A stretch of DNA of 64,000 bases from Myxococcota bacterium (lineage in GTDB: Bacteria; Myxococcota_A; Polyangia; Polyangiales; Houyiibacteriaceae). The position numbers are program-made. Numbering within the stretch: position 1 is the stretch's first letter; the number at the start of each line of letters is the position of its first letter. This document shows, piece after piece, positions 6,001-12,000 of this stretch. Where the stretch lies: positions 1-64,000 of the forward strand of contig JBCCEA010000006.1 in the NCBI GenBank assembly GCA_039030515.1, written 5' to 3'.

Positions 6001-9000
6001 GCGGCGATCGCTCATCGCGCTCGAGAGCAGGCAGCCCTCGGTATGCGTAACGGTCTTATCTCGGACTTTGATAAGCTCCGAACCGCACTTCAGGATTGGC
6101 TGGACCAAGAGGATGGGAGTGTCGCTGACCAGCGAGCGAGGCTAAGGGTCCCTTTAGACCTGGCCGCTCGTTTTGAAGCGAAGCCTATCGTGGATCGACT
6201 TGTGCGAGAAACAGCGACGCTCACAGGCAGCCTGCCGGAGTCCGCTTCGACCCTGAGCGATGAATCGATACGGGCGCTTGAACTAGGTCGTAGTGCCGCT
6301 CCTGAGGTTCGGAACTTGTCTGTCCGAGGTGTAGCTCAGTTTTTGCTAGAGACGGAGTTTGTCAGTGGGCTCCAAAGCGACCTGGAACGCGTCGCACCCA
6401 TCGAGATTCACGCGGTAGCCGTGGCTCGTGATTCGGTGCGCCTGCTTGCGTTTCACGTTTCTGAAGCGGATGAGGTGGATCGCGAACTTTTTCGAGATCA
6501 TCTGCGGCCGGTGGTGGAGAGCTCACTACAGCGAATCTCCGCGGAACACGATCAGCTCATGCCGCTCGGTGCCAGGTTAGAATCGGCATTTCGTGAGCGC
6601 TTAGCGAACGTGATTCAGGGCACCAATGCGTACGAGATCTCCAAGACCTCAGATCACTTAACCCGCCAATTTCGGGTCGCAGAAGGCAAGAAAGCGATTC
6701 ACGGGATGCAGGGGAGGGTGCAGCGGGCGGCAGCCGCACTCCGCCGTGCGATGGTATACCTGTTGTATCGCCGCAGCGCCGGCATGGTTCTCGCCAAAAG
6801 GCTTGAGCAGGAAGCGCAACATCGAGGGCCCTTGGCGGTACGGGTCGCAAGTTTCGTTCGGACCCTCCGTCCCTCTGTGCTCGAGCAGCTACCTTTCTAC
6901 TACCATCAGCTTTTTTTCGGGCAGTCCAGTATCAGTAAGAGCTTTTGGGTTGAGCGACCTGTAGAAATGCGCAGTGCCAAAGAGGCACTCATGAGATACC
7001 GGTCCGGCAGCGACGGGGCATTGGTGGTCATAGGTGAACGTTTCTCTGGTAAAACCGCACTATGTCATCGCATCGTGCAACAATCGCTGTCCGGCGAGCA
7101 GGTGTGTTGGGTGCATCCTCCTACCGGTGGTTCTTGCAACCTGGAGGATTTCTCTGAGGCGTTGCGGGTAGCCTCGCAGTTGAACGGCACTCCCGAAGAG
7201 ATCCTCGATCAATTGCGCGATGGCTCCGTCGTAGTGATCGACGATCTCGAGCTGTGGTGGGAACGAGTGGAAGATGGCTTTTCAGTCGTGGACCTCATCT
7301 TGAAACTCATCGAACGATATGGCCGACGACACCTTATCGTCCTTGGCTGTGGTCTATATGCGTTTCGACTACTCGATCGCCTGAGGCCACTTTCTGAGAG
7401 TTCTCTTTCGATTATAGAATGCGGGCCTATGGAGGCGGAGGCGCTAAAGCGTGTGGTGTTGATCCGACACGGCTCTGCCGGAATGAAGTTTGAGCTTGCA
7501 GGGCGCAGTGAAGAACAGCTTTCGCAGTGGTCGTTGGCAAATCTTTTCTCCAAGCATTTCGACTACAGCGGAGGCGTAGTCGGTGTGGCACTCAGAAGTT
7601 GGATCGCCGGCATTCGAGACGTTCAAGGGGTTGCTTTGAAGATCGAAGTTCCAGACCGGCGCAACTGGGGAGTGCTCGACGAGCTCAGAAGCGAATGGGT
7701 GGCTCTTTTGCTTCAACTGGTATTGCGTAAGCACGCAAGTTTTGCCGCCTTGAGTCGATGTTCTGGCTTGGAAGACGAGTCACTCTCTAGAGAACTACGC
7801 ACCTTGTGCCGAATGGGTCTCCTCGTCGAAGAGCGGGCAGGCGTGTTCGAGCTCGACGCATTTGTGCAGCAGGCCCTAGTTCAACGAATGCATCGTCGAG
7901 GGCTTTTGCCGTGAGCGTTATATTCGATCTGCTCTACTTTACTCTGATCGCGCTTGCGGCTTTTGGCACGCTTCGAGCCATGCGATGGCTCCTCAGCGTG
8001 CTTCCCTGGATGCGACCCTGGGTAGGTTCGGTCGAGCGTCTTTGGCCCGGCGTGACTGCGGCCGTTACTTTGGGGCTTATAGCGCACGCGCTGCGCTCGG
8101 CATTTAGCGATTCTCCCGAGCGGTTTCCCGTGATGGGTGTCGCACTCATTGCCGCGCTGCTACTGCTCATTTGGAATCCTGCACGTGACATGGCAACTGG
8201 AGTGCTTTTGAAAGGTTTGGGCGCTTTTCCCTTGGGAACCCTAGTGCGCATGGATGGGCTTGAGGGACGAGTCGCGCATCTGGGTTTGCGCGCCATAACG
8301 CTGACCACCGTCGACGGTGAAGAAGCCGTCGTACCGTTTTCGAAGGTGGCGAGCGCCTCAGTCGTTCGAAGCCTAAGCAAAAGTCACACGTCACCGCATA
8401 TGTTCCGAGTTCACTTGCCCGCAGGCATGACGGTTGCCCACGCCCGCAGGCAGATTCGCAAGGTTGCGCTTCTACAGCATTGGAGCTCCGTAGCTCGGGA
8501 TCCAGAAGTGAAGCTGATCGATCGAGACTGGCTGGAAGTGACCGCGTTCACGCTAGATGCCGACCACGTTCCAAGAATCGAACAAGCCATTCGCAGAGGT
8601 CTGCTTGAAGAAGGTGCGGTGCCGTTCAAGTCGAATAAAGAGTGATGATAGTCAGCTTTTTTTAGACTCTGATAGTCAGCTTTTTTTGGGTTCTGCTGGA
8701 GTGAACTCGTTTTGTTCAATTGTGAAAGGTTCGTCTATGTGCGTATCGTGAAAACGCTCGTAGTCGATAAGGATACGGCCGTCTGGTAGGTCGGCAACGA
8801 CGTCTACGAATCGCGAATTGAATCGAATATCCTCTGGATACCAAATGCGTTGGGCATGCGTTGTTTGCGCATATGTCGAGTCAAAACCCGTCAAGATTCC
8901 TATGAAAAGCAGTGCCTTTTCTTCCATGTCTTTAGATTCAATACCGTGGAGTGGACTCTGCTCGTCGATAATGTGAATCATGAGCCAAGACAGGGCAAAG

Positions 9001-12000
9001 ACGGGAGTGGAGTCCCTGATGAGTTTTAAGTCGTAGAGTCGACGTATCTGGTGGCCCTCAGGACTGTCGTCTTCCATCAGCACAGACAGTCTTGCTGTCG
9101 CTTCGAGAAGCATGTTCCCGCGTGCATTGCCCGCGCGAAGCATCAAGGCTTTCTTACCGTGATAGCGAGTCATCGTAAGCACATCGCTAAAGAGTACAGC
9201 CTTCCGAGGTCTGGATACCTTTGCAAACATAAGGCCGGTGGCGAGCGCCGTCAGGAGTAGGCCGGTTCCAGCCTCGATAGTGACCAGCAAGTTGCTGTAG
9301 GTGCTTGCGGGCGAAAGCACTCCGTAGCCCAGTGTCGACATGGTCTGAACGCTAAAGAAAAAGGCGTCCAGAAAGGAACCTGGATGGGCGTTGACGATGC
9401 TGTCGCTATCGAGCACATACAAAGCTCCAAAGACGACGTTGATCAAGAGATATCCCGTGACCATGGTTCCCAGCAGTCGAGTCCAGCTGCCTTCCATTAG
9501 GAAGAAATAGAGATCGCTGCGAATCTCGCTTGGTGCTCCACGTCGAACCGCCTCGGAAACATCACGACGCAGTCGATTTTTGATTTTTGGCCTTGAGGCG
9601 CGCTCGGGCGCTTTTGGACTGCTTGGACGAGCCGACGGCGCTCGTTGAATTGGCATGTCCGAGGCGGTCGGGACGACATTCATGTCGATCACAAGCTGCA
9701 AAATACAGATGCTGGCCAGCAATCCGACAAACGCCCAGGGCTGCATCGACATCCCCACCGGAGCGAGAACACAGGTAGCGATCCCGGAAACGATGCGGCC
9801 TCGAACACGAGCGCTGTCGCTGAGCTCTGCTTGCCGACGCTCGCTTACCCAGTCGATGGCGGCGATCGACAAAAAGGTGGCGGAGAGACCTCCGCAGAGA
9901 AGCCATCGGTGGGCAGCCGGCAGCGGTTCGACTGCAGTATGTTTCAAGGAGAGAACGATGCCGGAGCCGAGTAGGGAGAGAGAGGCGACAAGGGGCAAGT
10001 GACTGTAGATCCAAACGTAGGGGGCGATCGGCAGTGGTTTGAGTGGAGAATGGGCAACGTCATCAAAGTAGATCCACCACAAGCTAAACGTCACGGTGAG
10101 CACTTCGACGCATAAGATACCGCTCCTTATCGACAGTTCTTCATTCGACAAGATGTGGAGCTGCCAGATCAAGAATACGCCCAGGATGAGAGAGATGAGC
10201 AGGCCGTATCGGTGGGTTGTATGCCGCACATCGAGGGGATAGCGCAGCGCAAAGTCGCGACCCCACCGGCTGAGTGTGGTGGCGAAGTCAACCGCTGCGG
10301 CGATAGTCCAGGCAAGGTATACCCACGGCGTCTGCAGGAATATCGATCCCAGCCACAGCAGAGTTCCCGTACTGAATCCTAAAGTAAACGACCTAGCGTA
10401 TTCATTTGCGCGATCGACTTGAAGCCAGGTGCGGGCATAGAGAAGCGCCAGGGTGAAGCGCACAAAAGCGAATGCCGCAGAAAAGTAGACGGTTTTGCCG
10501 TTGACGACGTCAGGGACCGTGGCTCCCAGCATCGCTAGGCCAAAGATCTGTAAAAATACGAGGACGCGATGCAGGATGTCGTCTGAGAGAAATCGATTCG
10601 AATAAAAGGTGAAGCTCGCCCAAGTAGACCAGACCGGGATCAACAATCCGAGCACGCTCCATATCCGGTGGGGGTCTATCGGGTTTTCGAGCGTGCCCCC
10701 AAGGCGTGCGATGATCGAGACCGCAACGATTCCGTACAAGAGCTCAAGCCAGGGGGTGCGTAGCTCCTCGGTCGATCCCCCAACGTGCAACTGCGGCGGA
10801 TGAAACCAGCGGTTGCGAGGCGCGCGGTAGAAAGAAACGTCTTGATCGTTTGGTTCGTTACTCAACGGGTTCCGTCTCGCCAGAGGTGTTGTTCGATCGT
10901 CCGCGCAGTCCGGTGCCCCGTAGCGCCGCACGCAATTGGCCCGCCAAATCTGCCACAATTCGACCTAGAAGCTTCAAACTTCACGGATTCAGATGGTTCC
11001 GTGCGATGCTTCCGGCAACTTTCGGGAGATAGGCCGCTGCGGGCGTCACCGAGCAGCAGCGGGCGTCGCTGAGCAGCAGCGGTCCAGGGCCTCCTAAGCG
11101 GGTAGGCTGAGGTCTGGGCACGTTGAGAGGAGGAACATGCCCATGTTTGGTTTTCGTTTGAGTTTCGCGTCGCTCCTCGGTTTTGCCCTAGGCGCTTTGA
11201 TTGCCGCATCTGCCGGTTGCGGCGGTGCGCCATCCACCAGCGCCGCTACCCGCACGACGATCACTGTCGAAACCCTTTATCCGATGGCTGAAGGCAGCGC
11301 GTGGTCCTTTGATGTCGATACCGGAGTGTCGAATGCGCCTCCCACCCTGGCGATCACCCGCGTCGTTTCTGCGCGGGGTGCGCTCTTCGAATTGAGCAAC
11401 AACGGGAGCGAGCCAGTTCGCTACGAGCTTCGCGAACAAGGTCTCTTTCGCCCAGGCAGCGGCACCTGGTTGCTGCGGAAGCCTATCGAGACGGGGGCCT
11501 CTTGGGCATCGACCTCCGGGATGGTAGCCGAGGTTGCGTCGATGGGGGTTCGCGTCACCACTCCCGCGGGCACCTTCGAAGACTGCGTCCTTATCGAAGA
11601 ACGCGGCGAGGACTCGACCCGCAGGATCGCCACGACCTACTGCCCGGGCGTAGGGCCGGTCCGCGTTCTGTCCAGTATGAGCACTCGTTTTCGCGGAACC
11701 CATACCGAGGTTACCGCGGTTTTACGTGGTTACGCTGTCTCACCCGAAGCAGCTCCGCCCGAATAACGGGGACGCAGTCCGTCGATCTCGCGATACGCTC
11801 GCTTCGAATCGATGGGTTGAAGCCTAAGCGGCACCGGATCCCGCTCCCGTCCACTTGACGACGTGACGAGGGGTGATTAGCAGCTATCCGATGATCGTCG
11901 TCGATAAGGTGAGCAAGTACTACGGGGTCCATCCGGCTGTACACAACCTTGAGTTCCGGATCGATGAAGGCGAGTGCGTTGGTTTCCTTGGACTTAATGG

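Follow-up and report, generated by a model that had tools for sequence, protein, structure and literature searches.

The 64,000-nucleotide stretch of DNA analysed here (positions 1 to 64,000 of contig JBCCEA010000006.1 of a Myxococcota bacterium, referred to below as the window) encodes on its minus strand a 729-aa protein in which an LtrA domain precedes a KirBac-type channel. The corresponding ORF spans 8676..10958, the frame being open upstream of the called start to a TTG at 10958, and homologue alignments begin at approximately residue 17 of the 729-aa protein. The gene and its features are as follows.

8676..10865, minus strand: whole gene, 729-aa LtrA-KirBac fusion (called start TTG at 10865)
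9699..10754, minus strand: LtrA domain (PF06772), residues 38-389; 12 long TM helices, predicted two-repeat TMEM175 fold (Pfam 1.5e-51; model; structure matches)
10242..10754, minus strand: repeat 1, residues 38-208, TM1-TM6 (5vre_A Z 15.4 over model residues 35-199; hhalign against TMEM175 E 0.021)
9675..10241, minus strand: repeat 2, residues 209-397, TM7-TM12 (folded alone, pLDDT 93.9; 5vre_A Z 14.3)
10695..10751, minus strand: TM1, residues 39-57, WLELLYGIVAVSIIARLGG (translation and family alignment)
10143..10229, minus strand: TM7, residues 213-241 (translation and family alignment)
10059..10070, minus strand: Y266-F-D-D269 at the end of TM8 (helix H246-269 of the model; HMM alignment)
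9516..9674, minus strand: Pro/Ser/Arg-rich linker and Kir N-terminal cytoplasmic segment, residues 398-450 (KirBac1.1 alignment already from residue 418)
9207..9515, minus strand: Kir transmembrane pore, residues 451-553 (Pfam Ion_trans_2 and IRK; KirBac1.1 3.4e-65)
9321-9335, minus strand: selectivity filter T511-L-G-Y-G515 (translation)
8739..9194, minus strand: Kir cytoplasmic C-terminal domain, IRK_C, residues 558-709 (Pfam 2.6e-18; KirBac1.1/KirBac3.1 alignment)

Besides LtrA and IRK_C, Pfam identified Ion_trans_2 (residues 475-549) and IRK (496-553) in the 729-aa protein, and a PDB sequence search matched KirBac1.1 (3.4e-65, query 418-713) and KirBac3.1 (4.6e-59, query 440-707). Together with the ORF and the TLGYG filter, these matches bear out the preliminary description, which had placed LtrA, a linker and a complete KirBac in one chain. 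KirBac1.1 and KirBac3.1 (PDB 1P7B, 7SWJ, 1XL4 and others) align over their full length to residues 418-713 and share the T-x-G-Y-G filter and IRK_C, whereas the window protein carries ~400 LtrA residues fused at its N-terminus. Its filter has Leu where 100/105 other full-length fusions have Ile. Judged by its sequence, the C-terminal module is apparently an intact, ordinary KirBac-type inward-rectifier K+ channel.

A homologue search with residues 300-729 returned 362 matches at E<=1e-10, and PF06772 was present together with PF17655 and/or PF07885 in 117 of the 120 matches listed, reproducing the figures reported earlier (362 homologues, all but three of the 120 listed with LtrA and Kir domains). 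The genome is a draft (75 contigs, 85% complete), and a fusion may in principle arise as an artefact when an error in assembly or gene calling merges two adjacent genes. No positive support for such an error was found in this case; the frame is continuous and stop-free across 729 codons, 105 other full-length fusions (>=660 aa) match the window protein along its whole length, and the LtrA-Kir architecture recurs in many independent assemblies, so that an artefactual origin can for practical purposes be dismissed. The fusion of LtrA to a complete KirBac is genuine, and proteins of this kind make up a large family.

The structure of the LtrA domain alone was modelled with high confidence (pLDDT 94.1, pTM 0.92). 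In a VIA-align comparison with 48,161 chains, the model superposed on 6w8n_A, deposited as the endosomal/lysosomal potassium/proton channel TMEM175, with Z 26.3 (rmsd 3.7, 334 aa), followed by bacterial TMEM175 (5vre_A, Z 15.4; 6hd8_B, Z 12.3), compared with Z 9.8 for the best unrelated chain. Using Foldseek, the top seven matches were all human TMEM175 (TM-scores 0.62-0.67), with non-TMEM175 matches at TM-scores <=0.24. Repeat 2 folded alone likewise ranked 5vre_A first (Z 14.3, 173 aa aligned), then 6w8n_A (Z 11.0) and 6hd8_B (Z 9.7), the next chain scoring 9.2. The likeness to the two-repeat TMEM175 fold that had been proposed beforehand thus holds, at the level of predicted structures, under two aligners, and from it we infer common descent of LtrA as a distant TMEM175 relative. 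A literature search found no paper linking LtrA with TMEM175.

The sequence signal between the two families is marginal. Comparison of LtrA with bacterial TMEM175 using hhalign gave E 0.056 over 152 columns, and repeat 1 alone gave E 0.021 over 141 columns, at a probability of only ~1-2%; reversed controls reached E 0.10-0.37 over only 24-31 columns. HMM scores were 15.0 vs 7.2, 10.5 vs 5.9 and 10.1 vs 3.7 bits for real and reversed comparisons, respectively, and the Pfam TMEM175 model did not match the window protein. Both hhalign alignments are in register: LELFYD pairs with LEAFSD, and Trp82 with the Trp that is invariant in TMEM175. Asp45 (helix 1) and Trp82 (helix 2) are each present in 127/127 LtrA family representatives, and the corresponding Asp and Trp of MtTMEM175 are in contact, as stated in a passage of PMC7176437; an invariant LtrA pair in register with the interacting helix 1 Asp and helix 2 Trp of bacterial TMEM175 lends further support to the fold link.

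The FSD signature of TMEM175 corresponds to F-Y-D in LtrA, in repeat 1 only. Both repeats had been described as starting with F-x-D (L-F-Y-D and Y-F-D-D), which does not apply to the window protein: residues 42-45 read L-L-Y-G (Gly codon GGA), and Y266-F-D-D269 ends TM8. Y-F-D-D was ruled out as a second FSD motif, as it closes helix 2 of repeat 2 (H246-269) and aligns with the Y-W motif of TMEM175 helix 2, the HMM alignment placing WWlYFdd on IYWNN. For TM7 and TMEM175 TM1, three estimates of the register lie up to 6 residues apart.

Like LtrA, human TMEM175 (PDB 6W8N, 6W8O, 6W8P, 7LF6, 9VSP and others) has two six-helix repeats per chain, the first helix of each repeat being the most conserved, although sequence identity is only 10-13% and the window's domain, in addition, forms one chain with a Kir channel. 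Bacterial TMEM175 proteins are single-repeat tetramers, in contrast to the two-repeat LtrA chain, and the protomers of CmTMEM175 (5VRE) and MtTMEM175 (6HD8) fit repeat 1 (Z 15.4/12.3) as well as repeat 2 (Z 14.3/9.7). Within LtrA, conservation is strongest in TM1 and TM7 (entropy 1.29 and 1.76, compared with 2.07-2.90 in the other helices), and TM1 is also described as the most conserved helix of TMEM175 in part of PMC10216561, which further supports the fold link.

A homodimer prediction for the window's LtrA sequence scored 0.65, compared with 0.00 for the best of three controls, the calibration mark being one reached by 20/30 proteins whose solved structure pairs two copies of one chain and by 1/23 whose solved structure is a single chain, a calibration that holds only roughly because the prediction used our own alignment. 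Prediction runs had at least 62% of contacts in common (pLDDT 78), and the best contacts were from TM1 residue 46 to TM7 residues 225, 226, 229, 230 and 233 of the partner chain. The predicted interface comprises residues 39, 42-43, 46-47, 50 and 54 on the TM1 side and 221-222, 225-226, 228-230, 232-233 and 236-237 on the TM7 side, so that TM1 of one chain packs on TM7 of the other, as in human TMEM175, whose dimer is centred on TM1 and TM7 according to a section of PMC10216561. A predicted dimer that passes its controls with this core further supports the fold link, although the prediction model may have memorized TMEM175 dimers of solved structure, which could account for the result.

In typical LtrA proteins, the predicted bundle contains the invariant polar residues Glu41 and Asp45 (TM1) and Glu218, Arg219 and Glu230 (TM7), to which the fusions add Gln54, Ser231 and Lys234. 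These invariant residues on the TM1/TM7 bundle, in conjunction with the fold, suggest that typical LtrA proteins probably form cation or proton pores, although a common fold does not in itself establish a common function. Alternatively, LtrA proteins may not be channels, the TMEM175 fold serving instead for membrane sensing (for example of membrane state at low temperature), transport or lipid handling and, in the fusions, for the regulation of Kir gating. Listeria monocytogenes LtrA, the founding member of PF06772 and thus of the same Pfam family as the window's domain, would fit such a role, as a cold-growth requirement is the sole phenotype on record, its mechanism not being established, in the portion of PMC5491136 that covers it. 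In the same vein, LtrA has not retained the gate and selectivity residues of TMEM175 (Ala50 at Asp+5, Ile/Ala53 at Asp+8); the Ile gate and Thr layer of human TMEM175 are absent at the aligned positions. LtrA instead shows buried Glu, Gln and Lys that are conserved, and the helix 1-3 hydrogen-bond His/Asn and conserved Arg of bacterial TMEM175 are missing from it at aligned positions. A C-terminal zf-UBP finger in 3/20 long LtrA representatives scanned suggests signalling over a channel-specific role, and the domain persists in the window despite the loss of its charged core. Conversely, conservation peaks in precisely those helices whose TMEM175 counterparts line the pore; these helices place buried Glu, Asp, Gln and Lys within the predicted central bundle, a pattern typical of an ion path, and the recurrent fusion partner is itself an ion channel. 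On balance, we regard a non-channel role as rather unlikely, yet deserving serious consideration.

Typical LtrA proteins are stand-alone and ~400 aa long (97/127 representatives have 360-470 aa), whereas in the window the domain is part of a fusion protein and is without Asp45, a residue invariant in the family. The TM1 family consensus is WLELFYDLVFVAA.IQLG, from which the window differs by F43L, D45G, L46I, A50S and Q54R, and that of TM7 is H..ERYGLLT.IVLGESFVKVL, with the departures E218H, I226L, V227I, E230V, S231F, F232L, V233I and K234W. Among the other full-length fusions, Asp45 (105/105), Glu218 (105/105) and Glu230 (100/105) are retained, as is Asp45 in 9/9 fusions from the same taxonomic family, whereas all three are replaced in the window. 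The codons of Gly45 (GGA) and His218 (CAC) are each two changes from Asp and Glu codons, respectively. Mismatches at conserved columns amount to 13/29 in TM1/TM7, 11/55 in the rest of LtrA and 4/71 in the Kir part, and to 11/23 within the dimer interface vs 13/61 outside it (p 0.029), such enrichments being modest (p 0.02-0.03). Root-to-tip length was 1.65 for the window's LtrA part (median 0.80, rank 2 of 106) and 0.72 for its Kir part (median 0.64, rank 25): the LtrA part evolved at approximately twice the usual speed, and the Kir part did not. Two other fusions (P0297 and P0006) are about equally divergent on TM1/TM7.

The preliminary description had implied that this very protein possesses the motif and works as a second pore, which is at odds with the absence of Asp45, Glu218 and Glu230 and with the 13 differing TM1/TM7 columns. 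A working TMEM175-like cation channel in the window's LtrA, giving two active ion pathways in one protein, would agree with the fold and predicted dimer, both of which derive from the window's own sequence, and with the retention of Trp39, Glu41, Trp82, Arg219 and WW.YFDD; moreover, TMEM175 pores are characterized as largely hydrophobic in one part of PMC10216561, so that hydrophobicity of the TM1/TM7 core would not in itself imply closure. However, the Asp that has become Gly is the residue found in every representative, fusion and same-family relative compared, Glu218, Glu230, Gln54, Ser231 and Lys234 are replaced, some of these positions by bulky Phe, Trp or Arg, and mutations in the RxxxFSD motif abolish TMEM175 activity, as reported in a passage of PMC10216561. 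Considering also the accelerated evolution of this part, we judge such a second active pathway to be improbable. The still confident model and the kept Trp39, Glu41, Trp82, Arg219 and WW.YFDD are indicative of some constraint on the window's LtrA, whose activity could therefore be changed rather than lost.

The explanation that we favour overall, with modest confidence, combines an intact KirBac with a TMEM175-related LtrA domain, typical LtrA proteins being pores and the window's LtrA a decayed accessory module. KirBac channels work as tetramers. One chain would thus contribute two membrane modules, an N-terminal LtrA and a C-terminal KirBac; each six-helix LtrA repeat would adopt the TMEM175 fold and two LtrA domains would pair, TM1 and TM7 of both chains forming a central four-helix bundle at the place of the TMEM175 pore. 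In a typical fusion, two LtrA dimers would then sit beside one Kir tetramer. In the window copy, D45G, Q54R, E218H, E230V, S231F and K234W would have abolished conduction; to judge from these substitutions and from the rapid evolution of the LtrA part, conduction through this module has most likely ceased, and the module probably serves the Kir channel as a decayed but folded accessory domain or scaffold. K-ATP channels (Kir6.x and SUR) offer an analogy, as their Kir tetramer is ringed by large polytopic regulatory modules derived from transport proteins, although SUR is an ABC protein on a separate chain, whereas the window's module would have a TMEM175 fold and is covalently fused to Kir. 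For the long-unexplained LtrA family as a whole, the likeness to TMEM175 provides a testable function.

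The fusion of an LtrA domain to a KirBac-type channel is encoded by a single uninterrupted frame (residue numbers below refer to its product), and its two neighbours also encode ion-related proteins, namely an SLC12-like permease with a long tail and an MscS-like protein:

8676-10865, minus strand: LtrA-KirBac fusion gene, 729 codons, TTG start
2830-7914, plus strand: 1,694-aa ORF, SLC12-like, AA_permease at residues 13-410 (8.5e-41)
7806-8645, plus strand: small MscS-like protein, MS_channel_2nd beta-domain (1.7e-08)

Upstream of the TTG start, the open frame of the fusion reaches another TTG at 10958. 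The architecture assigned to the protein in the preliminary description, i.e. LtrA followed by a pore and IRK_C, was recovered with Pfam matches to LtrA (38-389, 1.5e-51), Ion_trans_2 (475-549), IRK (496-553) and IRK_C (PF17655, 558-709, E 2.6e-18), as was its likeness to KirBac channels in comparisons with PDB sequences (residues 418-713 vs KirBac1.1, 3.4e-65; residues 440-707 vs KirBac3.1, 4.6e-59). The Ion_trans_2 and IRK matches represent a Kir-type two-helix pore domain with pore helix, the selectivity filter T511-L-G-Y-G515 follows the T-x-G-Y-G pattern of Kir and KirBac channels, and the cytoplasmic beta-rich C-terminal domain of these channels (IRK_C) is likewise present. Based on this family membership and the intact filter, the Kir half is predicted to be a standard K+ channel.

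A homologue search with residues 300-729 identified 362 proteins at E<=1e-10; among the 120 listed, PF06772 was found together with PF17655 and/or PF07885 in 117 and was not so combined in three, in agreement with the numbers in the preliminary description. The same architecture was observed in a scan of species genomes, in records labelled Polyangiaceae, Kofleriaceae, Nannocystaceae, Sandaracinaceae, Bradymonadales, Holophagae/Acidobacteriota and Verrucomicrobia, and a full-length fusion at 39-42% identity is encoded in nine genomes from the taxonomic family to which the window belongs. An artefactual origin of the fusion was ruled out by this recurrence across the homologue search and many species genomes. 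In their source records, the fusion proteins are named either 'low temperature requirement protein A' or 'inward rectifier potassium channel'. Among related draft genomes, an in-frame TGA or TAG interrupts several of the matches to Kir or LtrA-Kir (loci L116 (G030:C175), L125, L126 and others), which may be broken copies or assembly errors. A Pfam domain scan of 20 longer LtrA representatives revealed further fusions among P0049, P0114, P0123 and P0018, three representatives carrying a C-terminal zf-UBP zinc finger and one protein of 965 aa in which LtrA and a Kir-type pore are combined with a short-chain dehydrogenase domain. Among cultured bacteria, Deinococcus radiodurans has a stand-alone LtrA that matches the family model, and Acanthopleuribacter pedis has a fusion (P0338).

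With regard to the neighbouring genes, the N-terminus of the 1,694-aa ORF corresponds to an amino-acid/cation-chloride-type permease, and nothing beyond weak P-loop/AAA matches was obtained for its tail of ~1,250 residues, AAA_16 (E 0.012) falling short of the cut-off. The listed start of the MscS-like gene overlaps the end of this giant ORF, and the MscS-like and LtrA-Kir genes are convergent, with 30 bases separating their stop codons. Across 80 related loci, an SLC12-like neighbour was present in one (L057) and an MscS-like neighbour in none, and the ABC ATPase matches near related loci were generic. As the neighbourhood is not conserved, it was given no weight and no operon argument was based on it.

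Relatives of the LtrA part were collected by searching residues 1-400 against 1.84 billion representative proteins, which returned 2,381 proteins at E<=0.001; an alignment was built from 127 of the 150 matches listed out of this total, with 23 left out as mostly short or partial. The predicted LtrA model (pLDDT 94.1, pTM 0.92) has its twelve long helices arranged as two groups of six (TM1-TM6 and TM7-TM12), and exhibits the six-helix repeat with an innermost first helix that defines TMEM175. The resemblance to human and bacterial TMEM175 reported earlier was reproduced in a VIA-align comparison with 48,161 chains, in which human 6w8n_A (named endosomal/lysosomal potassium/proton channel TMEM175 in its PDB file) matched model residues 37-399 with Z 26.3 and rmsd 3.7 over 334 residues, CmTMEM175 (5vre_A) matched residues 35-199 with Z 15.4 and MtTMEM175 (6hd8_B) scored Z 12.3, compared with Z 9.8 for the best unrelated chain. 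Foldseek, an independent method, placed human TMEM175 in the first seven positions (E 1e-4 to 4.4e-3, TM-scores 0.62-0.67), other matches having TM-scores of at most 0.24. Repeat 2 folded alone (residues 205-400, pLDDT 93.9) also ranked the three TMEM175 entries first in VIA-align, i.e. 5vre_A with Z 14.3 over 173 aligned residues, 6w8n_A with 11.0 on the second repeat of that chain and 6hd8_B with 9.7, followed by the next chain at Z 9.2. For repeat 2 by itself the margin over other chains in these model comparisons is thus smaller, and Foldseek gave it no match at E<=0.001, with 5vre_A at rank 34 yet having the best TM-scores listed (0.53 and 0.55). An ESM Atlas look-up returned LtrA clusters only and so provided no independent link. 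Given the agreement between VIA-align, Foldseek and the separately folded second repeat, the prediction that LtrA adopts the two-repeat TMEM175 fold is well supported.

The two families have similar frequencies in the phylum as sampled (LtrA in 26 and TMEM175 in 24 of 201 genomes). The window's own genome, which holds the LtrA-Kir fusion, gave no PF06736 match, although at 85% completeness the absence of TMEM175 from it is not established.

As previously stated, the link is invisible to Pfam, PF06736 being absent from the window protein's matches at E<=1. LtrA was therefore compared with a set of TMEM175 genes drawn from bacterial genomes of the window's phylum, which is considered sound because its profile matches human TMEM175 (6e-37) and CmTMEM175 (3e-33). 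Against this set, hhalign gave E 0.056 over 152 columns for the LtrA alignment and E 0.021 over 141 columns for repeat 1, with reversed controls at 0.10-0.37 over only 24-31 columns, and HMM searches in both directions scored 15.0 vs 7.2, 10.5 vs 5.9 and 10.1 vs 3.7 bits relative to reversed controls. The hhalign alignment places LtrA L-E-L-F-Y-D in register on TMEM175 L-E-A-F-S-D and LtrA Trp82 on the invariant Trp of TMEM175 helix 2; Asp45 and Trp82 are each present in 127/127 LtrA representatives, and their MtTMEM175 counterparts, Asp30 and Trp74, are described in PMC7176437 as touching each other. TM1 and TM7 are the most conserved helices of LtrA (mean entropy 1.29 and 1.76, respectively, vs 2.07-2.90 in the other ten), and the pore-lining TM1 is given as the most conserved region of TMEM175 in PMC10216561. 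The internal repeat of LtrA was detected by hhalign only at E 0.03, across TM3-4. The sequence signal between LtrA and TMEM175 therefore appears marginal but consistent, and its in-register nature, together with the Asp/Trp pair and the conservation of TM1 and TM7, renders common descent probable.

The conserved motifs of LtrA nevertheless differ from those of TMEM175. The preliminary description had placed an F-x-D motif at the start of both repeats: for repeat 1 this holds for the LtrA family, where W-L-E-L-F-Y-D retains Phe and Asp, but not for the window's copy, which reads L-L-Y-G, and for repeat 2 the proposed Y-F-D-D (Y266-F-D-D269) was found to end the second helix (H246-269) instead. 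In an HMM alignment, W-W-x-Y-F-D-D pairs with I-Y-W-N-N in helix 2 of TMEM175, and the following W-x-Y-x-H-L-P-L with W-A-N-L-H-L-L-F in helix 3. Repeat 2 opens instead with a helix (H213-241) that bears H-x-x-E-R-F/Y-G-L...L-G-E-S. The RxxxFSD signature at the start of TMEM175 helix 1 is absent, as repeat 1 of LtrA lacks its Arg and Ser and repeat 2 reads E-R-F/Y-G-L. Also absent, in an hhalign register that may be off by one, are the Ile/Leu gate at Asp+5 (position 50 is Ala in 102/105 fusions and Ser in the window's copy) and the Thr layer at Asp+8 (position 53 is Ile in 93/105 fusions and Ala in the window's copy). For TM7, the register relative to TMEM175 helix 1 was placed at Arg219 by the helix start, at Leu222 by the internal E41/E218 alignment and at residue 225 by the pair aligned first in the repeat 2 superposition; since these estimates differ by up to six residues, no fixed register was adopted and no gate residues were assigned on TM7. 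Compared with the Ile, Leu and Thr of the TMEM175 core, the TM1/TM7 core of LtrA, with Glu, Gln, Ser and Lys, is more polar. Two open frames of unusual length, 589 and 695 aa, contain TMEM175 matches (L030 (G178:C1:490429-490671) and L009 (G032:C374)) and may represent TMEM175 fusions or overlong frames.

Joint folding of residues 30-400 in two copies gave a dimer score of 0.65 (runs 0.65, 0.66 and 0.65; best of three controls 0.00). In calibration, 20 of 30 proteins whose structures are one-chain pairs attained the mark, as did 1 of 23 with single-chain structures. At least 62% of contacts were common to the runs (pLDDT 78). In the predicted symmetric interface, TM1 (39, 42-43, 46-47, 50, 54) packs on TM7 of the other copy (221-222, 225-226, 228-230, 232-233, 236-237), and TM3 packs on TM8. 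The same TM1/TM7 arrangement occurs in the human TMEM175 dimer, the pore of which is formed by TM1 and TM7 according to PMC10216561. As a prediction, this supports pairing of LtrA domains, although its pass may be partly owed to solved TMEM175 dimers and was obtained with our own alignment.

To place the window's copy among its relatives, it was placed in one alignment with 105 further full-length fusions; of the 121 sequences available, 15 were shorter than 660 aa and were left out. Residues of the TM1/TM7 core that are nearly or fully invariant elsewhere were found to be replaced:

Core positions in the other 105 fusions and in the window's copy
Position 45: Asp in 105/105; Gly in the window's copy
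Position 54: Gln in 103; Arg in the window's copy
Position 218: Glu in 105/105; His in the window's copy
Position 230: Glu in 100/105; Val in the window's copy
Position 231: Ser in 97; Phe in the window's copy
Position 234: Lys in 98; Trp in the window's copy

Within the LtrA-invariant set, Trp82 and Arg219 are kept and Asp45 is changed to Gly. Fusions of the same taxonomic family largely retain these residues (Asp45 in 9/9, Glu218 in 7/9 and Glu230 in 8/9). Two changes separate the codon GGA (Gly45) from an Asp codon and CAC (His218) from a Glu codon, so that neither replacement is a single-base error. Of 162 columns conserved at 90% or above, the window's copy deviates at 29, of which 24 lie in residues 30-400 and four after 450, residue 448 in the linker being assigned to neither the LtrA nor the Kir group. 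Deviations affect 13/29 conserved columns in TM1/TM7 vs 11/55 in the remaining LtrA (Fisher p 0.023), 11/23 columns in the predicted dimer interface vs 13/61 outside it (p 0.029), and 4/71 Kir columns (LtrA vs Kir, p 2.5e-4). In separate trees for each half, the root-to-tip length of the window's LtrA was 1.65 vs a median of 0.80 (rank 2 of 106), while that of its Kir half was 0.72 vs a median of 0.64 (rank 25). The LtrA score of the window's protein, at 176.1 bits, is well above the curated cut-off of 31.9, and in the scan of 201 genomes of the phylum it was the lowest among full-length matches (179 vs 187-278 bits). Simple decay is, however, countered by the observation that this LtrA domain is still predicted to fold confidently and retains many invariant residues. 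Also against it, two other fusions, P0297 and P0006, are about equally divergent on TM1/TM7, retaining Asp45 and Glu218 and having lost Glu230; as they too are strongly remodelled, the LtrA core may have decayed or changed more than once among the fusions.

Taken together, the models suggest that a typical LtrA would form a dimeric TMEM175-like pore. A cation or proton path through it is plausible because of the greater polarity of its TM1/TM7 core relative to that of TMEM175. An assembly of four fusion chains would contain a single Kir tetramer and a pair of LtrA dimers. The LtrA C-terminus and the Kir N-terminus presumably face the same side of the membrane, judging from the TMEM175 and Kir families, and a linker of ~20 residues plus the Kir N-terminal segment would permit such an arrangement. 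In the window's copy, where the charged core is gone, the most likely state of LtrA is that of a non-conducting accessory module. A wider joint reading, which is possible but doubtful as a whole, would make LtrA another widespread branch of the TMEM175 superfamily, present in bacteria and fungi and composed of cation or proton pores with a polar TM1/TM7 path lined by Glu and Gln. The fusions would be two-conductance assemblies of one Kir tetramer and two LtrA dimers, and in lineages like that of the window the LtrA pore would decay to a regulatory subunit, in parallel with SUR, the transporter-turned-regulator of K-ATP channels.

No literature connecting LtrA with TMEM175 or Kir channels was found, although Pfam clans, TCDB or fold classifications may already record the link; judged by title or abstract, papers on PF06772 offered nothing structural and those on COG4292, COG3548 or IPR010640 nothing relevant. 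Pfam listings in fungal-genome papers include LtrA, and TMEM175 has been reported to be absent from fungi. LtrA (PF06772) owes its name to a cold-growth defect in Listeria, a phenotype described in PMC5491136, and is not known to have been given a mechanism since. A TMEM175 fold would provide a concrete hypothesis, namely a cation or proton pore formed by the TM1/TM7 bundle, with Asp45, Glu218 and Glu230 as candidate key residues, and would extend the TMEM175 lineage well past the proteins that its sequence model finds. TMEM175 is itself of medical relevance through its link to Parkinson's disease. With upwards of 360 members, the fusions provide a naturally occurring case of a Kir channel tethered to another membrane module, and the window's copy, as a natural variant with its core stripped of charges, is a useful built-in control. 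LtrA is a distant TMEM175-fold family with motifs of its own, here fused to KirBac and probably decayed locally.
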